NCBI GenBank assembly: GCA_964016885.1
Contig: OZ024741.1
Span: 379,006,001 to 379,070,000, forward strand
DNA from: Eledone cirrhosa
Taxonomy: Eukaryota
DNA length: 64,000 nt
Direction: 5' to 3'
In this document: piece by piece, positions 7,990 to 64,000 of the stretch
How the letters are laid out: each line of letters opens with the position of its first letter
Position numbering within the stretch: position 1 is the first letter of the stretch
Made by a program: the position numbers and the translations under genes
Notes under the pieces: generated by a model
Seen by the model: only the letters and a program-made list of their open reading frames with translations
Databases searched by the model: none
What the model was told of the DNA's origin: nothing

Positions 7990-8229
7990 ATGTAACAAAC
8001 AACATAAGGCAATTATTCCATTTACCAGTGGTTTCTTAAAAGTAAAATAATTTGCTTTCAATCCTCAGAATGAAAAAATCCTGGTTTGTTTATTGAATAT
8101 GGATTTTAAAAACAAAAATAAAATCTATATGAAAGTGAAGCTGGAGAAAGAAAAAGGAAAGGAAAAATAAAATAAAACCACACATGCAAACACACACACA
8201 AACATACACACACACACAAAAGCATACAT

Positions 8230-8648: not shown

Positions 8649-9488
8649 AAAATTAGCCGTAGGATTTCTACCTTATCCCCATCTATAGACATTTTCAATA
8701 AAGCCGCCCCTTATGATAATAAAGCCCTTAAGAACAGCGGTTTTACAGAAAAAAAAATGATTACTCACCTACCCCCCCCACCCTAAAACTAACCACAATA
8801 ACAGGAAAAGGAAAATGATTTGGTTCACACAACCTTCGCTCTAACTGTCAAAACTAATGTAGGAAGGAAATTCCTTGAACTCTTAGACAAACATTTTCCT
8901 CCTAATCATAGACATTATAAGATATTTAATAGGAACGTAGTTAAGATCAGTTACTCTTGTTTCCCATCTATGAAGTCCAAGATCACTAGTTCAAATCATA
9001 CGAGAACAAATCCAGGATGCAGTTGCAGGAAGCCGGATGAATGCCCATTGCAGGGTAAATGTAACACCAAATCTGTTGTTTATGAGGCTAAAATAACACC
9101 GCTAATCAACAACCAGCCAGCCAGGAGTGAGCGATATGTCGGTATGACCCAGGACAGTTTTAAAACCAGATTTTACTCACATGTCGCTTCTTTTAAGCAC
9201 TCCGATAAACGAACATCAACGGCCCTCGCAAGTAAGGTGTGGGAATTCAAGGATAGTAACATCCCGTACTCTATCGATTGGTCTATCTGAGACCATTCGA
9301 GGGAGTACCAAAGGGGCACAGAGAATTGTTCTTTGTGTACCACAGAAAAATATAGGATTTTGCTAAACTGAAGATCCGCTTCTGCTTGCCATATCTCAAA
9401 GACTGAGATCTTCAGATATTGTCCTCATCTGAAATCACATCTGATCTGCAACTGGATTGACACTCCTATGATAAATCAACCGCCTTGA
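8645..9488 (+). pseudogene. Penelope-like element (Naiad-like) RT thumb, linker and GIY-YIG endonuclease, 5'-truncated
   Basis: SRRISTLS...ALKNSGF, KTNVGRKFLELLDKHFP, IFNRNVVKISYSC, CSCRKPDECPLQGKC, VVYEA...YVGMT...FKTRFYSH; continues past TGA 9288 as CSLCTTEK...CPH. Confidence 0.9.
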
Positions 9489-14609: not shown

Positions 14610-17600
14610 TTGGAAAAATTAGAACATTGTCGCCTCAAATGGACGCGCAATAATCAAGCCATGATTCGAGCTGAACAGTATGAGGGTTTGTATGATGCTG
14701 CGGCTGAAGGAGATTCAGTAAATGCCGGCCGGAGAATTGTTCTTCCTCCTTCAATCTATGGTTCACCTCGCTTCTACAGTGAGTGCTTTCAGAATTCGAG
14801 GAATGTGTTCGACACATGGGAAAGCCATCTTATTTCATCACGGTAACAACTAACCCTAACTAGGATGAAATAAAAAAATAATTTTCAACCTAGAAACCGT
14901 CGTGATATTTGCGCCAGTATCTTCAAGATCAAGTATGACAGCATCATGGAGGATATACTGAAAATAAATGTCCTAGGAAAAGTTGTGGCTCATTCTGCTA
15001 CAATAGAGTGGCAGAAACGAGGCCTCACTCATGCTCATATTCTGCTGATAATGGCTGAAAATAGCAAACCCAAAACTGCTGATGCCATTGATCAGGAAGT
15101 GTACTGTGAGATTCCTGATAAAGAGACCAATCCAATTCTGTATAAGATCATCACATCCTGCAACATTCATGGCCCATGTGGACAAGTTAATATGATGTGC
15201 CCATGTATGAAAGGGCTAGGACAACAACGCCATTGCTCAAAAAGTTATCCGAAGTCATTCAGACAAACCACATTTCTTGCCAAAAATTCCTTTCCGGAGT
15301 ATAGAAGGGATAGACAGCATGGTGGTCACACCCATACAATCCAACTTAAAGGTCAAGAATTTACTGTTGATAATCGTTGGATTGTTCCATACAACCCTTT
15401 CCTTCATTGAGATATCAGTGCCACAGCAATTTGAGGTTGTCCACAGTGTCAAGTCTGTTAAGTACTTATTTAAGTACACAATGAAAAGATCAGACAAGAT
15501 CACTTACACTATTAAGGATGATCAAAGAAATTGTGTCCATGCCCAAAATGAGATTGAGACCTATATCAATGCATAGAGAATCTATAAATTCCAATTACAT
15601 GATCGACAACTGCCAGTTGGAAATTTGCCTTGCCATTTACCTGGGGAGCAAATGGTCGTGTATGAGCGAGGGCAGGAAGAAAGTAATGTTTCTAGGGGAC
15701 AGCCAATGACTAAGTTGACGGAATATTTTCAACTGAATATTAGAGATCCACTGGCACAAAACATATTGTATATTTATATTTCTAAATATTTCACTTGGAC
15801 AAACAAAAAGTGGCAAAGAAGAAAAGAGGGACATCTGGATGGTGATCAACATTTTATGACTGAATCTCTTGGACGCATTCCAACAGTATCTCTCACTAGA
15901 CATCAATCTAAATTATATTACCTCAGAATGACCCTACATCACAAGACTGGATCAACTTCTTACAAAGAATTGAGGACAATTGAAGGAGTTGAAGTTCCAA
16001 AATTCCAAGAAGCATGCAGGAAAATTGTCTGTTAGATGAAGATGAAGAAAAAGACAAAGCTATGGAAGAGGCCTCATCCATTACGCTTGGTCCTCAGCTG
16101 CGAGAGATCTTCTGCACCATTTTATTGTACTGCATGCCAAATGTCCCTCTGCAGTTCTGGGAGAAATGGAAGATTTGTCTTGCAGAGGATATCATGCATG
16201 AACGTCGTGAACAAATCATGTCCATGCAAACCGTTCAGATTGTTCTACAGAAGAATCAACAAAGACTTCAGCATGATGGTTATTTTTCACAAAGTTATCA
16301 CCTCTGTAAATGAAAATGAAGGCAGAATTTTCTGCTTGAATGCAAGTGCAGGTACAGGAAAGACCTATGTCATAAACATCCTATTGGATTACCTCCGATC
16401 TAAAAAAAAATCGCACTTGCCGCTGCCATATCTGGAATAGCAGCCACTTTGCTTCACAAAGTTATAACTCTTCATTGCATGTGCAAGATTCCTATCAATG
16501 CGACTGCTGTATCAACTTGCTTCTTCACAAAGAGGGATGCCACAGGGACACTTATGCAGCAAGTTGACCTGCTAATCATTGATGAAATGTGTATGGGACA
16601 TAAGCATATATTTGAATGCCTTGACAGTAGCTTAAAATATGTTCAAGATTGCAAAAAACGATTTGGTGGTCTAACTGTATTACTATCTGGTGACTGGAAG
16701 CAAATTCTTCTAGTTGTACGTCATGGTGCTAGACCACAAATAGTTGACGAAACCATCAAGAGATCCTATCTCTGGGACTATGTGGAAACCATGGAGATGA
16801 CAACAAATCAACGGTTAATTAATACAGAGGATTCTTATGAAAGACTGTTTGCAAACTACCTTCTTGGTGTAGGAAATGGTAGCATTCCAACTGTTCCAAA
16901 TGCAGGTGCATTCACAATTCTTCTGCTAAATTAACTTTGTCTGGAATATGGTAATGTGTCTGGCCTGTGTGATTTTGTGTATACAAATCGTCCAGGAAAC
17001 TACACAAACTCACTATGTCTTGCAAATAGAGCCATTATCACTCCAACATATGATGCAGCAAGTTCCCTGGTCATGAAATAATCGACAGAAGCTCTGATAC
17101 CGTAAATAATGACTGCAATATCCAATTGATTTCATCAACAAACTTTCCCCATCAGGATTCCCAACACACATACTTAAACTGAAGAAAGGCAGTTGCATCA
17201 TGTTTCTGAGAAAACTGGATCCTCTAAACGGGCATTGCAATGGTACACGCTACATCATCATCATTAGTTTACAGAATCATGTAATTGAAGCTGAAGTGGG
17301 TCTCAATGCTGGAACAAGGTTGCTAATCCCAAGGATACCACATGTATCTCAAGAACTTGATTTCCATTTCACCTTTACACGCAAGCAATTTCCTGTCAAA
17401 CCAGCCTTTGCCTTTACATGCAACACGACACAATGGCAGACATTTGAAAAGATAGGTGTATATCTACTAACACAATTCTTTTCACATGTTCCAATTTATG
17501 TTGAATTTCACGAGGAACAAAAAAGAAAATATTAAAATATTAAGTGAAAGGGGTCTGTTTGCTGACAACTGTCTACAAAGAAATTCTACAGTGATGGGAA
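14610..17600 (+). pseudogene. Helitron Rep/PIF1-helicase (RepHel), fragmented
   Basis: GSPRFY, EWQKRGLTHAHILL (HUH motif), HGPCG, DNRWIVPYNP, KYLFKY, ASAGTGKTY (Walker A), IIDE, GDWKQIL, CNGTR, RKQFPVKPAFA; many frameshifts. Confidence 0.95.
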
Positions 17601-20012: not shown

Positions 20013-20045
<33 letters not shown>

Positions 20046-20252
20046 AGTATGAAACACGTACATACATATATGTATACCGACGTACAGTAGTATGTATATA
20101 TATATATACATACATGCACACATATATATATGCACGTATGGATTCACCGAATATTTATTATAATGCTCGGTGTGTTTGTAAACAAACATCCCATATTAAG
20201 CCGTAGTGTCTAGCAACCACCGTTGCTCGTTTGTTCAACACTGACAAAGGAA

Positions 20253-20293
20253 TGCTGTACTAGTTTCAAGCTTGTTAGCTATCGTCAGCAACG
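20253..20293 (-). ncRNA. Type I hammerhead ribozyme, 424-bp family, copy 1
   Basis: Minus: CGTTG-CTGACGA-TAGCT-AACA-AGCTT-GAAA-CTAG-TA-CAGCA. Confidence 0.85.
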
Positions 20294-20677
20294 TATACCT
20301 TCCTGCCAGATTGTTGAACGTATATACTTACCTTATGCATATTAACGGCTGAGTAGCCCAATTTGCATATCGAGTGGGTTAATCGGCCGGGTGCACCGAA
20401 AACGATAAACGGAAAAAAATGAAACGATATTTCATTTCCCACTCTTAGTACGGCTGTTACTTAAATATAAGTATGTACACGTACATACATATATGTATAC
20501 CGACGTACAGTAGTATGTATATATATATATATACATACATGCACACATATATATATGCATGTATGGATTCACCGAATATTTATTATAATGATCGGTGTGT
20601 TTGTAAACAAACATCCCGTATTAAGCCGTAGTGTCTAGCAACCACCGTTGCTCGTTTGTTCAACACTGACAAAGGAA

Positions 20678-20718
20678 CGCTGTACTAGTTTCAAGCTTGT
20701 TAGCTATCGTCAGCAATG
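20678..20718 (-). ncRNA. Type I hammerhead ribozyme, 424-bp family, copy 2
   Basis: Minus: CATTG-CTGACGA-TAGCT-AACA-AGCTT-GAAA-CTAG-TA-CAGCG. Confidence 0.85.
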
Positions 20719-21099
20719 TATACCTTCCTGCCAGATTGTTGAACGTATATACTTACCTTATGCATATTAACGGCTGAGTAGCCCAATTTGTATATCGAGT
20801 GGGTTAATCGGCCGGGTGCACCGAAAACGATAAACGGAAAAAATGAAAAGATATTTCATTTCCCACTCTTAGTACGGCTGTTACTTAAATATAACTATGT
20901 ACACGTACATGCATATATGTATACCGACGTACAGTAGTATGTATATATATATATACATACATGCACACATATATATATGCACGTATGGATTCACCGAATA
21001 TTTATTATAATGATCGGTGTGTTTGTAAACAAACATCCCGTATTAAGCCGTAGTGTCTAGCAACCACCGTTGCTCGTTTGTTCAACACTGACAAAGGAA

Positions 21100-21140
21100 C
21101 GCTGTACTAGTTTCAAACTTGTTAGCTATCGTCAGCAACG
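21100..21140 (-). ncRNA. Type I hammerhead ribozyme, 424-bp family, copy 3
   Basis: Minus: CGTTG-CTGACGA-TAGCT-AACA-AGTTT-GAAA-CTAG-TA-CAGCG (G-U wobble in stem II). Confidence 0.85.
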
Positions 21141-21492
21141 TATACCTTCCTGCCAGATTGTTGAACGTATATACTTACCTTATGCATATTAACGGCTGAG
21201 TAGCCCAATTTGCATATCGAGTGGGTTAATCGGCCGGGTGCACCGAAAACGATAAACGGAAAAAAATGACACTACGGCTTAATACGGGATGTTCGTTTAC
21301 AAACAAACCGAGCATTATAATAAATATTCGGTGAATCCATACGTGCATATATATATGTGTGCATGTATGTATATATATATATATACATACTACTGTACGT
21401 CGGTATACATATATGTATGTACATGTACATACTTATATTTAAGTAACAGCCGTAGTAAGAGTGGGAAATGAAATATCGTTTCATTTTTTTCC

Positions 21493-21534
<42 letters not shown>

Positions 21535-36799: not shown

Positions 36800-37610
36800 G
36801 ACTCAGTTTCTAGCGTGTTCATATGGTACCGAACCGTCTTTCTTTTCCTTTTTCTTCCCCCATTGTTGGTCTGTGATGACACACATATCAGGGGACATTT
36901 GAATTATTGGGCGTATAATCGTAGAGAGGAAGTAGGAGATCCTGTAGTTACTGGCGATATTCGCTTCGCATACAGGTCTTGTTGGTGGTCCAGCTGTAGA
37001 GTTGTTAATTGTCTTATGGTCTTTGCGGAGTCCATATAAGTGTGGTATGTCATTGTTAGAGGCTTGGAAATGATTGGCTGTGCGTCCACTTGGTTTTAGG
37101 ATGTCGCTCCACATCATCATGTGAGCATTGAGGATCTTTTCTCTTTCCTCATATGCCTGTAGTGTTCTTTCACTCGTCTTGACATTGTGGGGTTGCATAG
37201 CCTTGATGTAGTTTGGCATGCTGTCTATTGACATCCTACAGTATTGTCTGTTGGTAGACAAACTACCTCACCATCCCTCTGCCCTGCATGAGGCTAAATA
37301 GGTCTTCTGGAGTTTTTCTTCCAATTTGTTGATTCCTGGTCTGTTTTGTCTCCTAGTGTATTGTTCTATTACGTGTCAAATTTTCTTTCTGCTTATGGTA
37401 AACTGAGCCACCGGTTGTAAGTTTATATGTTGTGGCATAAAACCCCTTTTATTAAATGGTAATTTGGTGGCGAGAATGTTGTTCATCTTGAATGATTTGT
37501 CAGCTGGGATTAAGAACAGGTTCTCTAATAGGATGCCATTAAACCTACCGTTAAAATTGTGTGTACGATTATTATTGTCATTATAGGTGTTGTTTTCGCT
37601 ACTGTTAACG
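36800..37610 (-). pseudogene. Penelope-like element RT N-terminal fragment
   Basis: IPHLYGLRKDHK...GPPTRPVC...ISYFLSTIIRP (PLE K.HK/RP motifs). Confidence 0.75.
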
Positions 37611-40870: not shown

Positions 40871-41017
40871 TTAGCTAATAAGCTTGACACTAGTACAACG
40901 TTCCTTTGTCAGTGTTGAACAAACGAGCAACGATGGTTGCTAGACACTACGGCTTAATACGGGATGTTTGTTTACAAACACACCGAGCATTATAACAAAT
41001 GTTAGGTAAATCAATAC

Positions 41018-41064
<47 letters not shown>

Positions 41065-41492
41065 CATGTATGTATATATATATATACATACTACTGTACG
41101 TCTGTATACATATATGTGTGTACGTGTGCATACTTATATTTAAGTAACAGCCGTACTAAGAGTGGGAAATGAAATTTCGTTTCATTTTTTCCGTTTATCG
41201 TTTTCGGTGCACCCGGCCGATTAACCCGCTCGATATGCAAATTGGGCTACTCAGCCGTTAATATGCATAAGGTAAGTATATACGTTCAACAATCTGGCAG
41301 GAAGGTATACGTTGCTGACGATAGCTAATAAGCTTGACACTAGTACAGCGTTCCTTTGTCAGTGTTGAACAAACGAGCAACGATGGTTACTAGACACTAC
41401 GGCTTAATACGGGATGTTTGTTATAATTCTCGGTGTGTTTGTTTACAAACACACCGAGCATTATAACAAATCTTCGGTGAATCCATACGTAC
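40871..41492 (+). mobile_element. 424-bp family retrozyme-like copy (~1.4 units) with inactivated HHRs
   Basis: Reverse complement of the 20047 array; CTGACGA at 41315 but GACA replaces GAAA in both units. Confidence 0.85.
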
Positions 41493-42029: not shown

Positions 42030-43725
42030 ACTCGCCCTGAAGAACCTACGGAATTGGGAACTTATATACTTACCATCCGACAAAGGTAAAGAGTCTTGCG
42101 TCATCTCTCAAGCCACATACAATAACCTAGCCTTAAAACGCCTAAGCGACAATGAATTATACACAGAGATCCCGGACATGACTGCAGCCCAGATCGAAAA
42201 ACAGAACAACTCCATTTGGTTCGATATCTGTAGGAGAAGACAACTCCCAAATAAAATTAAGCTCAACTACACCACTAGAAATAGCAGACTGCCCACTTTC
42301 TACCACCTCATCAAGACCCACAAGAATAGTACTAAGACGCAAATAAGACCCATCGTCTCTAGCATAGAAGGACCCCTATACACAATTTCCTGGCTCCTCT
42401 CCCAGGTCCTCAAGCCTCTACTCTCCACCTTTCCCGCGCATGTCAGTAGCTCCGACGAAGTTATACGTAGACTACACCAACTCTAGCCAGAACAACTTAA
42501 ACTAAATAAATACGCTTTTAGCCTAGACGTTGTTTCCCCCTACACGACAGTACCCGCTCATCCAGCTGTCGATTTATTGACGGACTGCGTGGTCGCAGAG
42601 GACATCCACTGCTACGGCCTCCACCCGACGGACATACACCAGCTTTTGTCCTTCACAGTAGACAACAGGTACTTCACCTTCCACCATCACACATACAGAC
42701 AGACAACAGGATTACCCATGGGATCCAGCCTATCGGGCCTGCTGGCCATCACCTACATGAACCAGCTAGAATGCCGAACCCTCAACACCTGCCATTCCCA
42801 TGCCTTCTTCACCCGATATGTAGATTACATACGCATCCTTACATCATCCCGTGAGGAGGCAGATAAAATATACACAACATTCTCCAGCATGGACGCCAGT
42901 ATAAAGTTCAGCATGGAACACCCCGATGACCGGGGATCCCTATCCCTACTGGACTTCCAACTCAGGGTAACAGAGGAAGGCAACATCCACACTTGCTTCA
43001 ATAAAAAAGCCGCCAGCAGGGACCTGTTCGTACATTTCAGATCGGCCCTCCCACTCGGGGCCAAGTTCGGATACATAAGGAACGAACTGGCACGTATCCG
43101 GAACAAATGCACCGACGCTAGAGACCGAGACGCACACACCACACATTTCCTGGAAGTACTCAAACTGAACGGATACACGAGATCCACCACAAACCGTGCC
43201 AGAAAGAACAGAGGACACCACACCCGAGGCACTAACACTTGCTTCCTGAAGCTCCCACACTTCAGTGAAGAAACAACAACAGCCATCTGCAGAGCCATCA
43301 GACGAGAGGGACTAGATATCCAACTGGCCCACTCAGGTCCTTCTCTACGCGGACAGCTAACCAAAAGACACTCCACCAGACATGGCAACTGCTGCAGACT
43401 AGCCAACTGCCCCATCAACGACACAGACCTCTGCCACCAGGCTTACGTCGTATACAGGCTGGAGTGTGACAAATGCAACAACTTCTACGTAGGTAGCACC
43501 ATCTGACCACTCCACATAAGAATAAAAGAACACCTCAATACTAACGCTTCCTCATTTAAGAAACACCTAGTTAAATGCAAAAACACCGACAAAACCATAA
43601 CAGTTAGGATAGAAACTAAGGAAAGAAACCTCGGCAAACTTAGAATTAAGGAAGCACTAATTATAGATAAAACACAACCACCAATCAATAATAGACTAGA
43701 AGTCAACACCCAATTTATAACCTGA
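42030..43725 (+). pseudogene. Penelope-like element (Nematis-like) RT and GIY-YIG, 5'-truncated
   Basis: LPSDKG, FYHLIKTHK...IRPIVS, SLDVVS, GLPMGSSLSG, TRYVDY, VVYRLECDKCNNFYVGSTI*PLHIRIKEH...IKEALII...IN. Confidence 0.92.
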
Positions 43726-47229: not shown

Positions 47230-47547
47230 TAATATTAATATATATATATATATATTAATATATATATATATTATATATATATAATTGTTTCTACTTTAGG
47301 CACAAGGCCACCAATTACCCAGTGCATTACTGGTACTTTATTTTATCGACCCCGTAATGATGAAAGGCAAAGTCAACCTCGGCGGGATTTGAACTCAGAT
47401 AGTAAAGGGACGTAACTATGCTGGAAAACATGGCGTCCGACCCTCTACCGATACTGCCAATCCACTGCCATATATTATATATATATATAATATATATATA
47501 TATATATAATATATACATATATAATATATATATATATAATATATATT

Positions 47548-47579
<32 letters not shown>

Positions 47580-47650
47580 ATATATATTTATATATATATA
47601 TAATATATATTTATATATATATATATATTTATATATATATAATATATATT

Positions 47651-47686
<36 letters not shown>

Positions 47687-47695
47687 ATATATATT

Positions 47696-47746
<51 letters not shown>

Positions 47747-47773
47747 ATATATAATATATATTTATTTATATTT

Positions 47774-47830
<57 letters not shown>

Positions 47831-47836
47831 ATATAT

Positions 47837-47900
<64 letters not shown>
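46710..47900. repeat. Degenerate (TA)n block
   Basis: Visible directly; interrupted by a SINE. Confidence 0.95.
47283..47470 (-). mobile_element. tRNA-derived SINE, full length, inserted in TA tract
   Basis: Near-identical to the 24365 copy. Confidence 0.9.
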
Positions 47901-47902
<2 letters not shown>

Positions 47903-50900
47903 TGGAATAAATGCTCTGAAATAGCGATATATATGTGAATATAGACATAGAATATTCGAAAATATTCTGTATGTTTATAATAAACATTTTGAAGACCTAA
48001 TCGCTATAGAATAGAATACGTCACGTATTACAATTAGATTCTCGATAAAAGCAAGGGAAGTAATCTACGCGTTTCATTCTTGTTAGAAATCATCAGGACT
48101 ACATATCCAGTGCTTTTATCGAGAATGACACAGCTAGAGACTTATAGAATACTTAGCTGTGTACAGGAACTGGTTTGAAAGAGCGGTTGCCGGTCCGGCA
48201 GAAATTAGAAATTGGAATAAATGCTCTGAAATAGCGATATATATGTGAATATAGACATAGAATATTCGAAAATATTCTGTATGTTTATAATAAACATTTT
48301 GAAGACCTAATCGCTATAGAATAGAATACGTCACGTATTACAATTAGATTCTCGATAAAAGCAAGGGAAGTAATCTACGCGTTTCATTCTTGTTAGAAAT
48401 CATCAGGACTACATATCCAGTGCTTTTATCGAGAATGACACAGCTAGAGACTTATAGAATACTTAGCTGTGTACAGGAACTGGTTTGAAAGAGCGGTTGC
48501 CGGTCCGGCAGAAATTAGAAATTGGAATAAATGCTCTGAAATAGCGATATATATGTGAATATAGACATAGAATATTCGAAAATATTCTGTATGTTTATAA
48601 TAAACATTTTGAAGACCTAATCGCTATAGAATAGAATACGTCACGTATTACAATTAGATTCTCGATAAAAGCAAGGGAAGTAATCTACGCGTTTCATTCT
48701 TGTTAGAAATCATCAGGACTACATATCCAGTGCTTTTATCGAGAATGACACAGCTAGAGACTTATAGAATACTTAGCTGTGTACAGGAACTGGTTTGAAA
48801 GAGCGGTTGCCGGTCCGGCAGAAATTAGAAATTGGAATAAATGCTCTGAAATAGCGATATATATGTGAATATAGACATAGAATATTCGAAAATATTCTGT
48901 ATGTTTATAATAAACATTTTGAAGACCTAATCGCTATAGAATAGAATACGTCACGTATTACAATTAGATTCTCGATAAAAGCAAGGGAAGTAATCTACGC
49001 GTTTCATTCTTGTTAGAAATCATCAGGACTACATATCCAGTGCTTTTATCGAGAATGACACAGCTAGAGACTTATAGAATACTTAGCTGTGTACAGGAAC
49101 TGGTTTGAAAGAGCGGTTGCCGGTCCGGCAGAAATTAGAAATTGGAATAAATGCTCTGAAATAGCGATATATATGTGAATATAGACATAGAATATTCGAA
49201 AATATTCTGTATGTTTATAATAAACATTTTGAAGACCTAATCGCTATAGAATAGAATACGTCACGTATTACAATTAGATTCTCGATAAAAGCAAGGGAAG
49301 TAATCTACGCGTTTCATTCTTGTTAGAAATCATCAGGACTACATATCCAGTGCTTTTATCGAGAATGACACAGCTAGAGACTTATAGAATACTTAGCTGT
49401 GTACAGGAACTGGTTTGAAAGAGCGGTTGCCGGTCCGGCAGAAATTAGAAATTGGAATAAATGCTCTGAAATAGCGATATATATGTGAATATAGACATAG
49501 AATATTCGAAAATATTCTGTATGTTTATAATAAACATTTTGAAGACCTAATCGCTATAGAATAGAATACGTCACGTATTACAATTAGATTCTCGATGAAA
49601 GCAAGGGAAGTAATCTACGCGTTTCATTCTTGTTAGAAATCATCAGGACTACATATCCAGTGCTTTTATCGAGAATGACACAGCTAGAGACTTATAGAAT
49701 ACTTAGCTGTGTACAGGAACTGGTTTGAAAGAGCGGTTGCCGGTCCGGCAGAAATTAGAAATTGGAATAAATGCTCTGAAATAGCGATATATATGTGAAT
49801 ATAGACATAGAATATTCGAAAATATTCTGTATGTTTATAATAAACATTTTGAAGACCTAATCGCTATAGAATAGAATACGTCACGTATTACAATTAGATT
49901 CTCGATAAAAGCAAGGGAAGTAATCTACGCGTTTCATTCTTGTTAGAAATCATCAGGAACATATCCAGTGCTTTTATCGAGAATGACACAGCTAGAGACT
50001 TATAGAATACTTAGCTGTGTACAGGAACTGGTTTGAAAGAGCGGTTGCCGGTCCGGCAGAAATTAGAAATTGGAATAAATGCTCTTAAATAGCGATATAT
50101 ATGTGAATATAGACATAGAATATTCGAAAATATTCTGTATGTTTATAATAAACATTTTGAAGACCTAATCGCTATAGAATAGAATACGTCACGTATTACA
50201 ATTAGATTCTCGATAAAAGCAAGGGAAGTAATCTACGCGTTTCATTCTTGTTAGAAATCATCAGGACTACATATCCAGTGCTTTTATCGAGAATGACACA
50301 GCTAGAGACTTATAGAATACTTAGCTGTGTACAGGAACTGGTTTGAAAGAGCGGTTGCCGGTCCGGCAGAAATTAGAAATTGGAATAAATGCTCTGAAAT
50401 AGCGATATATATGTGAATATAGACATAGAATATTCGAAAATATTCTGTATGTTTATAATAAACATTTTGAAGACCTAATCGCTATAGAATAGAATACGTC
50501 ACGTATTACAATTAGATTCTCGATAAAAGCAAGGGAAGTAATCTACGCGTTTCATTCTTGTTAGAAATCATCAGGACTACATATCCAGTGCTTTTATCGA
50601 GAATGACACAGCTAGAGACTTATAGAATACTTAGCTGTGTACAGGAACTGGTTTGAAAGAGCGGTTGCCGGTCCGGCAGAAATTAGAAATTGGAATAAAT
50701 GCTCTGAAATAGCGATATATATGTGAATATAGACATAGAATATTCGAAAACTTTCTGTATGTTTATAATAAACATTTTGAAGACCTAATCGCTATAGAAT
50801 AGAATACGTCACGTATTACAATTAGATTCTCGATGAAAGCAAGGGAAGTAATCTACGCGTTTCATTCTTGTTAGAAATCATCAGGACTACATATCCAGTG

Positions 50901-51416
50901 CTTTTATCGAGAATGACACAGCTAGAGACTTATAGAATACTTAGCTGTGTCCAGGAACTGGTTTGAAAGAGCGGTTGCCGGTCCGGCAGAAATTAGAAAT
51001 TGGAATAAATGCTCTGAAATAGCGATATATATGTGAATATAGACATAGAATATTCGAAAATATTCTGTATGTTTATAATAAACATTTTGAAGACCTAATC
51101 GCTATAGAATAGAATACGTCACGTATTACAATTAGATTCTCGATAAAAGCAAGGGAAGTAATCTACGCGTTTCATTCTTGTTAGAAATCATCAGGACTAC
51201 ATATCCAGTGCTTTTATCGAGAATGACACAGCTAGAGACTTATAGAATACTTAGCTGTGTACAGGAACTGGTTTGAAAGAGCGGTTGCCGGTCCGGCAGA
51301 AATTAGAAATTGGAATAAATGCTCTGAAATAGCGATATATATGTGAATATAGACATAGAATATTCGAAAATATTCTGTATGTTTATAATAAACATTTTGA
51401 AGACCTAATCGCTATA
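47901..51416 (-). mobile_element. Retrozyme-like tandem array, 310-bp unit, 11 full copies plus ~107-bp partial
   Basis: Unit starts 47901, 48211, 48521, 48831, 49141, 49451, 49761, 50069, 50379, 50689, 50999, 51309; near-identical; one minus-strand HHR per unit; no ORF. Confidence 0.9.
48038..48126 (-). ncRNA. Type I hammerhead ribozyme, 310-bp family (first of 11 copies)
   Basis: Minus core 48102-48060: GTAGTC-CTGATGA-TTTCT-AACA-AGAAT-GAAA-CGCG-TA-GATTAC; stem I extended by 16-bp ATTCTCGATAAAAGCA/TGCTTTTATCGAGAAT. Confidence 0.9.
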
Positions 51417-51468
51417 TATATATATATATATTATATATATATATTATATATATATTATATATATATTA

Positions 51469-51522
<54 letters not shown>

Positions 51523-51531
51523 TATATATAT

Positions 51532-51581
<50 letters not shown>

Positions 51582-51621
51582 TATATATATTGATATATAT
51601 ATATAATATATATATATATAT

Positions 51622-51659
<38 letters not shown>

Positions 51660-51697
51660 TATATATTGATATATATATATAATATATATATATATAT

Positions 51698-51741
<44 letters not shown>

Positions 51742-51781
51742 TATATATATTGATATATATATATAATATATATATATATAT

Positions 51782-52066
51782 AATCATCATTCATCTTTTA
51801 AATGCAAACTTAAAAGAACTAACACTGCTCTCTCAGAACTCATATGGTCCTTAAAAGACAAAAACATTAAATATACCATCTTTTGGAAGAAGATTTCTGC
51901 TGCATCCTCATACTTGGACAGCTCTCTATCTAAAATCTGTAATCTCTGCCTAAATGAAAAATTTACCATTATCTCTAACCTAGATTCTATAATAAATAGA
52001 CGCTCAGATTTGTTTTCTATCTGCCTGCATAAATTCCATAGAACTTTTCACAAAGTATACAGTTAA
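51782..52066 (+). pseudogene. PLE (Naiad-like) GIY-YIG C-terminal fragment, absent from the ORF track
   Basis: Open frame [35 protein letters not shown]...CNLCLNEKFTI...NRRSDLFSICLH...*, aligning with the 9180-9488 translation. Confidence 0.85.
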
Positions 52067-54299: not shown

Positions 54300-54662
54300 T
54301 ACAATATTAAATAAATGGAAACTATATTTATATAACCATATGTATTTCATTATATATATTTCAGGGATATCATATTAACAATATGCTATGCCTTCCTCAG
54401 ACAAAATACAATATAAACAGTTTTATAGATAAATAGATTTGACATACCGTAACAACATCGACTTGTATTTGACTTGCCAATTCAACTTTTCAAATACAAG
54501 TCGATGTTGTTACGGTATGTCAAATCTATTTATCTATAAAACTGTTTATATTGTATTTTGTCTGAGGAAGGCATAGCATATTGTTAATATGATATCCCTG
54601 AAATATATATAAGGAAATAAATATGGTTTTATAAATATATTTTCCGTTTATTTAATATTGTA
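54300..54662. repeat. Long palindrome (173-bp arms, 17-bp spacer) with an HHR in each arm
   Basis: Arms 54300-54472 / 54490-54662. Confidence 0.9.
54341..54410 (-). ncRNA. Type I hammerhead ribozyme, palindrome family
   Basis: Minus: TGTATTTTGT-CTGAGGA-AGGCATAGCATATTGTTAATATGATATCCCT-GAAA-TATATA-TA-ATGAAATACA; mirror copy on plus at 54552-54621. Confidence 0.8.
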
Positions 54663-54686
54663 TTTATATATATATATATTTATATT

Positions 54687-54721
<35 letters not shown>

Positions 54722-54724
54722 ATT

Positions 54725-54799
<75 letters not shown>

Positions 54800-54898
54800 A
54801 TATATATATATGCAAAGTTTTATTTAAATTGTTGGGTTAACAACGAGTAAATATTTATAACTGATATAAAAGCACTCAACAAGTATTTGGAATATATT

Positions 54899-57565
<2,667 letters not shown>

Positions 57566-59484: not shown

Positions 59485-59541
59485 GTTTTGATTTCCCTGA
59501 TGAGTCCTTAATAGGACGAAACATTGTCGGCTAATAAAAAC
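59485..59541 (+). ncRNA. Type I hammerhead ribozyme, canonical core
   Basis: GTTTTGATTTCC-CTGATGA-GTCCT-TAAT-AGGAC-GAAA-CATTG-TC-GGCTAATAAAAAC; GUC triplet. Confidence 0.85.
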
Positions 59542-59711: not shown

Positions 59712-59749
59712 GGAACGACGTTTCGGGCATAAGCCCTTCCTCAGGTGAG
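59712..59749 (-). ncRNA. Minimal type I hammerhead ribozyme in Neptune-like pLTR
   Basis: Minus: AC-CTGAGGA-A-GGGC-TTAT-GCCC-GAAA-CG-TC-GT; palindromic ACGT stem III; stem I weak. Confidence 0.75.
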
Positions 59750-61178: not shown

Positions 61179-63930
61179 CTAAAGGAATAAGGGTGGGGAG
61201 TTCAGGCCAGGGGGAGTGTGGGTCTGAAAGATGAAGATAGTTCTTTCTTCAACTCTAAGGCGATTGGCGGGTGCTCCGTGGCATTGGAGTAGGCCACAGA
61301 CTGTGAGATGGCGTGCGGAATGTCCAGGGCCACCAAAGTGGCGGGCGATGGGGGAACTACCACCGAGACGAATATCCCTGAGGTGCTCAGTAAATCGGTC
61401 CCGCGGGCGACGTCGCGTCTGTCCGACATAAGTCGTAGACGAAGTCCGTAGACTAGGTTGGAGGAGGTGCAGCGGAAGGCATGCCGGACAGAGAGAGAGT
61501 GACCGTTGGGACCCTGGAAGGTGGTGGTGTTGGTGATGTGGGGACAGGTGTTGCAGCGGGGCCTAGAACAGGGAAAGGAACCGGGGGGGGGGGGGGGGGG
61601 CACAGAGCGTGGATTGGGGGGTAGGGAGCTGTGGACGAGGAGGGTGCAGAGATTGCGTGCGCGTTTGAAGGAGGGGAGTGGTGGGGTTGGGAAGATGTGG
61701 AAGGTGGAGTGGTCGGACTGGAGGCGTCGGAAGAGGCGGCGGATGGTGCGGTGGAGGAGTAAGGTGGAGGGGTGGTAGGTGCTGGGGAAGGGGAGACGGT
61801 GGGTGGGTGTGCGGTGGCGTGGGCTGAGGTTGGTGGAGCGGTGGACAGCACGGGCGCGGGTGAGAGCGGTGTGGACGGGGGGGGGGTAACCTCTGCTGAT
61901 GAGATGAAATGGCCAACTAGGGAAAGGGCCTGGGACTCGAAGTCACCATCTTCGCTACAGAGGCGGCGGATCCTGAGGAGTTGGGAGTAGGGAATGGAGT
62001 GTTTAGTGTGGGTGGGGTGGGAAGAGGTGAAGTCGAGGTAAGAGTGGGAGTCGGTGGGTTTGAAGAAGGCGGAGGTGACGAGGGAGTGGTGGGAGGGGTC
62101 GAAGGAGATGTCTAAGAATTGGACGTGGGTGGTGGAGATAGAGGTGGTGAAGTGGAGGGTGGGGTGGAAGGAGCAGAAGAAGGAGAGAAAGGAGTCGAGC
62201 TGTTCTCAGGTGAGGGTCGTGGCTCCGATACAGTCGTCAATGTAACGACCGTACAGTCCGGGCGTGGGGCCGGTGTATTGGGCAAATATTTGGGCATCAA
62301 CATGGCCAACAAAAAGGTTGGCAAAGTTCGGGCCCATTCTTGTACCCATGGCTAACCCCGTGACCTGTTGGTAAAACTCACCCGAGAAGGAGAAACAATT
62401 GAGGGTGAGGACCAGCTCGGCGAGGCGAAGGAGGGTGGGGGTGGATGGAATGGGGGAGGGGCTAAGGTCGAGGTAGTGTTTGAGGGCGCGTAGGCCGTCG
62501 GCGTGGGGGATGACGGTATAGAGGGATTTGATGTCTAGGGTGAAGAGGAAGGGCTGTGGGCCGGGTGGGTAGGTGAAGGAGTCGAAAAGGCGCAGGGCGT
62601 GGTTGGTGTCGGAGATGTGGGAGGGGAGGAAGGTGACAACGGGGGCGAGGATAGAGTCGAGAAAGGCGGAGATGAGTTCGGTGGGACAGTTGCAAGCGGA
62701 GACGATGGGGCGGCCGGGGTTGTCGGGTTTGTGGAGTTTGGGGAGGAAGTAGATGGTGGGGGTGCAGGGGGTGCGGACGATGAGGTGGGAAGCTGTGGGG
62801 GGAGGGAGGGAGGAGGCGATAAGGTCTTGGTTGGTGGAGGAGACTTGTTGTGGGTAGAGGTGGGTGGGATCAGAGGGAAGAGGGCGGTAGAAGAGGGGGT
62901 TACAGAGCTGCCTGAGGGCTTCGGCCGTGTAGAGGTCCGCGCGCCACACCACCACGGCGCCTCCCTTGTCCGCCGGTTTGATGACGATGTCATCCCGGCT
63001 ACGGAGGGATCGGAGAGCGAGGAGTTCGCCCCGTGAGATATTGTACCGTTTGGAACGGTGGCGAAAGTCGAAACGATTTACTGCGCTATGGCTGGCATCG
63101 ACGAACGCGTCCATGGTGCTAAATTGCCCTGGGGCCGGCGTCGAAGAACATAGTCGTCGGCCCAGGGCGAGAAACGGGTCTGGGGCGTCCGGAGCCGGTG
63201 GCGTTCGGCCGAAATGTGCCTGTAGCTTAGTGCGTCGCACGAATCGCTCGACTTCCGTTCGGGTGCGGAACTCGTCGCTGTGCGGAGTGTGAGGTATGAA
63301 GCGAAGGCCTCTACTAAGGAGTGAGCGCTCAGGTGCGGAGAGAGGGAGGTCAGGGGGTATGGTGACAACACGTGGTGGGGTTTGGCTGTGTGGGGGGAAG
63401 GGAGGCGTTGTGAGGGGTGAGGTGGAGGGTGGAGATTGGGTAGGGGTGTGGGTCGAGGGATGGGTGGAGAGTGGTGGGCGTATGGGGATAGGCGGGTGGT
63501 GGTGGATGGGGGTGGTTGGTAGGAGTGAGTGTAGATTGCGGGCCTTGGTGGAGCTGAGGAAGGAGAAGACGTTGTGGTTGAGGTTTTGGATGAAGGAGAG
63601 GATGGCTTGGGCGAGGAGGGGGTGGCAGCTGGAGTTAAGGCGGAGGAGGGTGGGGGTCAGTTGGTGGTCAAGTTGGCGGAGGGTGGAACGGGAGGCGCGG
63701 ATGGAGTTGCGTATCAGGAGGCGTAAGGATCGGGTGAGGATACGTTGCGTGGAGGGTGAAGCGGCGGGGGAAGGGTGGAAGTGTAGACGGAAGCCGAGGG
63801 GGATAAGGTGGAGGCGGAGGCAGTGGCTAAGGAAATGGATGTGGCTGGAGTGCCGAGATTTGGCGAAGAGACGGTAGGAGAGTTGAAGGGCAGAGTGGGA
63901 GGAGGGGGGTGAGGAAAAGTTTGAAGCGAT
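61179..63930 (-). pseudogene. Neptune-like PLE RT and GIY-YIG polyprotein, frameshifted
   Basis: VIKPADKGGAVVVW, IYFLPKLHK...PGRPIVS, LDIKSLYT, GLAMGTRMGPNFANLF, YGRYIDD, GSFPCSRPRCNTCPHI, FRCTSSNLVY, TPPGLN. Confidence 0.92.
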
Positions 63931-64000
63931 TATATAGTTGGTGGAGAAAGGATGTCAGGCTGGGCATGAGGGGCGTTGGTTGAAAGCAGGGGGAGGGATG

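Follow-up and report, generated by a model that had tools for sequence, protein, structure and literature searches.

The tandem array of 310-bp units in the stretch of Eledone cirrhosa DNA analysed here (64,000 nucleotides, hereafter the window) is probably a recent insertion of a non-LTR retrozyme, for which the reverse transcriptase and endonuclease of a Penelope-like element (PLE) likely copied one, likely circular, 310-nt RNA about 11 times into a (TA)n tract. Judged by every genomic feature tested, its family appears almost certain to be a non-LTR retrozyme. That insertion is PLE-driven seems highly likely, and the template was probably, in the main, a circular monomer. Retrozymes of this kind were already known; the value of this family lies in its insertion footprint, which consists of two arms, fixed starts and putative editing marks.

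TRF resolves the array (Table 1) as a 310-bp period repeated 11.3 times with 99% matches. Spacing is 310 bp per unit except in unit 7 (308 bp), and the twelfth unit has 108 bp, in agreement with the 11 near-identical non-coding units and a partial one, inside a TA tract, described in an earlier note made from the window's letters. The window's list of open reading frames holds no long frame in the array, and the non-coding unit lacks the reverse transcriptase and GIY-YIG frame of an autonomous PLE. Unit length and GC content (0.34-0.35) lie within the ranges for retrozymes (150-450 bp, GC below 50%), with no LTR architecture. About six variants had been seen at first reading, and six events were counted: one substitution in unit 6, a 2-bp deletion in unit 7, which does fall in stem I as first noted, one event in unit 8 and three in unit 10. 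Units 6 and 10 have one substitution in common, which the circular-monomer reading does not account for; a four-unit circle behind it was rejected, since unit 2 is without the change. Unit positions are numbered on the RNA strand from the first base past the cut. A short interspersed repeat, presumably an octopus-type SINE, breaks the left TA tract (47285-47470), and an Rfam match to Pestivirus in the window is a TA-repeat artefact.

Table 1. Coordinates of the 310-bp array, its flanks and its predicted ribozyme elements in the window.
Feature	Position	Strand	Basis or remark
One-armed tandem array	47901..51416	RNA sense on (-)	11 full 310-bp units + 108 bp
Left (TA)n target tract	47470..47900		Sequence and TRF
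Right (TA)n target tract	51417..51782		Sequence and TRF
Outer end at position 165 ("tail" site T), abutting (TA)n	47901..47903	(-)	1,068 exact junction matches genome-wide
Proximal site P: AU run of the unit itself, positions 130-139	47927..47936	(-)	Not an end in the window array
Inner (RNA 5') end at position 58	51413..51416		TATA common to unit and flank (microhomology)
Predicted 310-nt monomer, cut to cut	48066..48375	(-)	Identical to family majority sequence
Segment of positions 131-196	48180..48245	(-)	Best kept against 321-bp sister family with matching end sites
2-bp deletion, stem I of unit 7 (5' strand)	49958..49959	(-)	Unit alignment
Hammerhead core, stem II and palindromic stem III, unit 1	48066..48096	(-)	Motif, Rfam and covariation
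Core repeats, units 2-6	48376-48406, 48686-48716, 48996-49026, 49306-49336, 49616-49646	(-)
Core repeats, units 7-11	49926-49956, 50234-50264, 50544-50574, 50854-50884, 51164-51194	(-)
Stem I strands, 48097-48102 with 48060-48065 (GUAGUC/GAUUAC)	48060..48102	(-)
16-bp helix, 48038-48053 with 48111-48126, closing the monomer rod	48038..48126	(-)

The motif GUAGUC-CUGAUGA-U-UUCU-AACA-AGAA-U-GAAA-CGCGUA-GAUUAC is found on the minus strand of 11/11 full units, bearing out the claim of a type I hammerhead in each. The core of unit 1 (48096-48066) places the predicted cut between 48066 and 48065, where the earlier note had put it, and the palindromic stem III that it named (ACGCGU) is present; the loop of stem II is AACA. 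Overlooked at first was position 10.1-11.1, at the base of stem II, which is U.U instead of the usual G-C. A 16-bp extension of stem I had also been proposed; the helix exists, but two internal loops lie between it and stem I. A scan with hammerhead models, suggested as a check, was likewise divided in its outcome, the Rfam motif match (HH9) occurring in 10/11 units, but at 19.2 bits (E 0.54) and short of the gathering score of 52.

Other genomic copies lend support to the predicted cleavage of dimer type. When 10 motifs belonging to three families of this genome are aligned without gaps, the core is unchanged and 10/14 pairs differ on both sides, among them those of the stem III palindrome (ACGCGU versus ACUAGU); the covariation score was reached by 0/500 shuffles, with slid controls at 0.12 or below, in an alignment whose rows are related and were chosen by hammerhead pattern, so that it leans toward structure. 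This covariation would back a real ribozyme, short of proof. The 31-nt core in the window's allele has 4,587 exact copies genome-wide, and its reversed control has 0. Within the family, ribozyme variants are commonest at N7, loop II and 10.1, and U>A at 10.1 restores a pair in 26 arrays. Of the fixed substitution types, 0/36 lie at the 16 positions that make up the core and stem III, against 1.9 expected, which is not significant alone.

Folding predictions give a stable self-paired monomer, with z-scores of -4.6 (monomer circle) and -5.0 across both strands against 100 shuffles, the two strands being alike. For a nascent RNA running from a cut site to the next core, a complete hammerhead is predicted, with a 6-bp stem III between two palindromes, pair probabilities of 0.90-1.0 and a weak stem II (0.54-0.70). 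The probability of stem III pairs in the monomer circle is 0.0. At equilibrium, a 696-nt stretch folds a local stem I without stem III, so cutting would depend on co-transcriptional folding. A precedent for U.U in this place is axolotl HHR_Amex2, whose dimer cuts well (PMC7229834); among frog dimers, 8/9 tested did not cut (10.64898/2026.07.22.740005).

The family was counted by exact patterns: genome-wide, 19,121 sites match a 15-nt core pattern exactly, against 1 for its control. Dispersed arrays, for which a genome-wide search had been proposed, were found: within the first 31 Mb of contig C1 there are 17 separate ones, of which 12 are two-armed, 4 are one-armed and 1 is interrupted by a gap. 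Their total number is estimated at about 1,600 by scaling from the 31 Mb, or at about 2,000 from the core matches (19,121 / 9.4 units per array). Together with the covariation across three families, the dispersed copies uphold the retrozyme identity put forward in the earlier note. So does its claim of youth hold, because sporadic change amounts to 0.12 substitutions per unit, which makes the family very young. Classical satellites form large clustered arrays by DNA recombination; the arrays here are short and scattered, with fixed ends and inversions. Of four runs of undefined kind, three gave a single 340-nt contig that joins to itself and the other gave 606 pieces; since a collapsed tandem array would look just like a circle, these contigs do not bear on the question of circles.

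The geometry of insertion was studied in 131 parsed arrays (1,232 units), all but the window array lying in the first 261 Mb of C1 of one assembly. They comprise the window array, 10 found by core pattern, 94 by the position-165 junction (which with 6 of the core-pattern 10 are the first 100 listed of 1,068 matches) and 26 by the position-130 junction only (26/34 among the matches listed). Six arm segments duplicating arrays in overlapping loci and 4 short sister-family matches were left out of the counts. Complete two-armed arrays number 116/131, nine are one-armed, and 6 are cut by gaps or by the edge of the fetched stretch. The arms of all 116 stand head-to-head, the RNA 3' end of each arm lying at an outer junction. 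The array described in the earlier note is thus a less common, one-armed form of a family whose members are mostly two-armed inversions (116/125 complete arrays, and 12/16 in the unselected 31 Mb).

The outer ends fall into two classes. In 115/116 two-armed arrays one end lies at 157-172 (mode 165) and the other at 118-139 (modes 130 and 139, in site P); the remaining array pairs ends 154 and 130, and 0/116 have both ends in one class. Since 120/131 arrays were chosen via one junction pattern, only the class of the opposite end is a free test. Junctions between the cut site and TA number 3 genome-wide, against 1,068 at position 165. Inner ends are scattered over the unit (10 bins, p 0.058), and 6/228 lie within 3 nt of the cut, where about 5 are expected. 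Priming at the ribozyme cut was rejected, given the rarity of cut-site/TA junctions. The data support the view that reverse transcription begins at two fixed internal sites, away from the cut, and the outer end at 165 in the window array would mark its start there.

The arms overlap by 1-5 bp at 56 of 114 inversion points and by more at 5; at 36 there are extra bases between them, and at 17 they meet bluntly. TA-rich sequence flanks 67/86 arrays on both sides. Target duplication is not resolvable in pure TA tracts, that of the window included; an array in a non-TA site (L034) has one clear 15-bp duplication. Complex inversions occur in L041 and L059. The arms of L037 enclose 272 bp of another retroelement (L037:2599-2870), as expected from a template switch. 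The captured piece is non-LTR-like, with zinc-finger-like and reverse transcriptase frames nearby; its 39 best other matches are all at C25 19-24 Mb, and Rfam has no match around it. The link to PLEs is drawn because AT-rich targets, a tail at one end, two start sites and inverted truncated arms are all found in the family.

The variants within arrays bear on the nature of the template. Length changes private to a unit number 0 in 1,203 cut-site spans, and there is no run-off at the cut, which argues for a continuous template. A 1-nt insertion after position 2 was rejected as a scar, being a haplotype trait of whole arrays. The two arms carry the same haplotype in 94/96 arrays (shuffled mean 16.4, maximum 29). 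Private variants fixed through whole arrays number 20 in about 123 arrays, close to the load of about 0.12 sporadic variants per unit, and this agreement points to a single-unit bottleneck. Read on the RNA strand, fixed changes include 12 A>G and 6 T>C, against 14 and 24 among sporadic ones (p 0.048). A20G occurs on 3 haplotype backgrounds and A276G on 5 in the first 91 arrays. The A>G lean of the fixed variants would fit A-to-I editing of the template RNA, a reading that invokes the preference of the editing enzyme. Selection for structure as the sole cause is weakened by the paired sites, where fixed A>G and C>T number 10 and 1 against 9 and 14 among sporadic changes (p 0.008), both changes being equally pair-keeping.

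A closed monomer circle is compatible with continuity, arm identity, the single-unit bottleneck and the A>G lean together. Copying of one circular RNA on both sides of a break is favoured over crossing-over of the satellite type because of the agreement between arms, the absence of scars and the lean of the fixed changes. The earlier note had proposed an origin by rolling-circle reverse transcription; arm haplotypes and intact cut sites agree with it, and three arrays call for something more. In L067, L086 and L113 the two arms share a variant in units of equal rank, counted from the outer end. Such sharing is impossible with a monomer circle, so some templates were multimers. In our reading, most templates of the family were probably circles and a smaller share were multimers. 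Both arms of L086 change haplotype beyond their second unit. In L059, position 276 goes from A to G along one arm, and the other arm is nearly all G. L036 has a variant pattern of period 7, and L071 is an irregular mosaic.

The strongest alternative extends what holds in these three arrays to most of the family. The same enzyme would use the same two start sites, with a template that is mostly an uncut linear multimer transcribed from an existing array, the ribozyme being slow or idle. The same-rank variants are as expected under such copying, the U.U mismatch could explain a slow ribozyme, uncut RNA is the main substrate of a PLE in vitro (PMC11167929), and scar-free cut sites are predicted equally well. 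We nevertheless consider it unlikely. Over 335 unit-equivalents of same-rank overlap there are 3 shared events and 86 unshared differences, where about 37 shared events would be expected, an estimate made at 0.11 variants per source unit and assuming that the sources resemble present arrays. Editing of a multimer would yield mosaics, whereas A>G changes stand fixed from end to end of an array and recur on several backgrounds; private variants present in all units require a bottleneck of one unit.

A cut linear monomer would provide that bottleneck equally well, if the enzyme jumped from its 5' end to its 3' end, held near by stem I. Template switching does occur, as in the L037 capture and the complex inversions of L041 and L059. 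Such jumps leave scars with other non-LTR enzymes, and none were found in 1,203 crossings; inner ends do not pile up at the cut. This template is very unlikely. Still less credence is given to insertion of a short PLE-derived end piece once, followed by satellite growth through unequal crossing-over, the model of a 2026 preprint. Local mosaics in the long arrays L036, L050 and L071 indicate that later change at the DNA level happens, but such growth gives no account of haplotype identity across inverted arms with sporadic variants unspread, of strand-biased A>G fixation, or of the uniform near-identity of scattered arrays. It is hardly credible that the second arm was made by fold-back of the first cDNA, or that the arrays are assembly artefacts: palindromes can come from fold-back and arm lengths correlate weakly (rho 0.26, 76 arrays), but the two classes of arm show no consistent difference in length (Wilcoxon p 0.30; 3.2 versus 19.0 units in L036 and, the opposite way, 22.9 versus 1.1 in L119), and each array has its own haplotype and flanks.

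With the circular monomer as the preferred main template, a mechanism can be outlined. Arrays would be transcribed on the ribozyme strand, and a nascent core would pair with the upstream cut site via the 6-bp palindrome and then cut. The resulting 310-nt monomer would be ligated, and the circle, unable to form stem III by itself, would be stable. The enzyme would then nick both strands of a (TA)n tract and start at the internal sites 165 and 130-139. Each primer would circle the RNA, and the two cDNAs would join head-to-head. For the window array, only the 165 primer would have run, its end annealing to the target through TATA. More specifically, we lean, if only slightly, towards a PLE-type dimer that holds one closed 310-nt RNA, with one start site for each strand of the break and two reverse transcriptases making up to 20-27 turns, so that an insertion is the record of one edited RNA. 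If so, the family gives a direct view of the entry of animal ribozyme circles into genomes and of the origin of the Penelope tail and 5' inversion, and the recognition region and ribozyme are modules exchangeable between families.

Related families carry similar ribozymes. A sister family, whose 321-bp unit shows 65% identity, has ends at matching sites and keeps positions 131-196 best, a segment that is a candidate recognition region for the mobilising enzyme. Its hammerhead differs (long stem III, U3/A8 or C3/G8), which suggests that ribozyme modules may be exchanged between families. It is found at L095:4650-5450, L046:280-810 and L151-L180 and is likewise two-armed. A 422-bp family has a closely similar hammerhead (U.U, AACA loop, ACUAGU palindrome) on a different body. 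Its copies in the window lie at 20040-21498, which is two-armed with an inversion near 21268, and at 40872-41488, an older one with about 87% identity. At L082 and L085, a third hammerhead family that is also related (G10.1-C11.1, GUU site) stands in tandem near 310-bp arrays, and several ribozyme repeat families have TA tracts in common.

A search for the coding partner gave negative results. One Neptune-like family (30 loci), which has another hammerhead, shows no clear pLTR homology to the unit, and no partner reading frame stands beside the off-family hammerhead motifs in 30 examined of 37 hits to a pattern excluding the main families. A 24-nt match in L126 was rejected as a chance match. 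Two fragments in the window, 51785-52063 and 8802-9287, are labelled Neptune-like Penelope endonuclease fragments on motifs that we take to be diagnostic, with no Pfam match. The first was rejected as part of the array, with which it only shares a TA tract; the second is a member of a large family that has a hammerhead of its own (8023-8068 minus, 11493 plus). Further Penelope-like coding remnants lie at 42487-43503 (+), 61182-63954 (-) and 36806-37267 (-), the first two with RVT_1 matches. Hammerhead-like motifs occur at 59497 (+) and 59717-59744 (-), and 54355-55166 holds three copies of another (one minus, two plus) within a long TA tract. Broken frames at 14874-17532 are presumably Helitron Rep/helicase-like.

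For the multiplication of animal retrozymes there are two accounts: circles reverse-transcribed by an unspecified enzyme, as proposed in one paper, and growth in place at the DNA level, as discussed in a 2026 preprint. The circle-copying route was thus proposed earlier, not shown. In the present family, very young and high in copy, an estimated 1,600-2,000 insertions record the event. It would provide target-primed rolling-circle reverse transcription with an example from nature, and it is relevant to the tail and inversion of Penelope elements, which still lack an explanation. The predictions are exact, namely a circular template on which one strand starts at 130-139 and the other at 165, and suit the existing in vitro Penelope system. 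In that system, purified PLE protein cuts and extends both strands of AT-rich DNA, starting at two internal RNA sites whose spacing equals the 30-40-bp tail; ribozyme cutting is not needed for insertion (PMC11167929). In genomes, PLEs are marked by inverted 5'-truncated copies, a tail at one end and a (TA)n bias (PMC8557442). The 310-bp family is like EN+ PLEs in its AT-rich targets, ends 26-35 nt apart, one-end tail, head-to-head inversion and starts well downstream of the ribozyme cut. It is unlike them in having no reading frame and in arms of up to 27 or more near-identical units. Start sites are alike on both strands in vitro (PMC11167929), whereas the family strictly pairs one tail end with one proximal end.

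Among ribozymes, the closest likeness is to dimeric type I hammerheads with a two-pair helix III and a palindromic loop (PMC4209133), which, like those of newt satellite repeats (PMC7229834), cut in multimers and avoid cutting in monomer circles. Their conserved G10.1-C11.1 is here U.U, or A-U in 26 arrays. With metazoan non-LTR retrozymes (PMC7229834) the family shares a non-coding tandem unit of 150-450 bp, GC below 50%, a type I hammerhead in each unit, a self-paired fold and a target duplication of more than 4 bp. Expression, cleavage and circles have been shown for those retrozymes and are predicted for the 310-bp family. Two-armed arrays, fixed internal starts and editing marks are not described for them in the available text of that paper, whose Supplementary Figure S9 holds its authors' model and may bear on novelty; nor were they found in the literature searched, which covers few subscription journals. 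According to a review, retrozyme repeats show no motif indicating the mobilising element (PMC7761336). The vertebrate non-LTR retrozymes of Li, Clavereau, Pollet 2026 (10.64898/2026.07.22.740005) are similar in their tandem hammerhead units, PLE-holding genomes and proposed PLE enzymes, and local growth by unequal crossover is discussed there. In that preprint the tie between retrozymes and PLEs comes from co-occurrence and pLTR homology; for the 310-bp family it comes from the insertion footprint.
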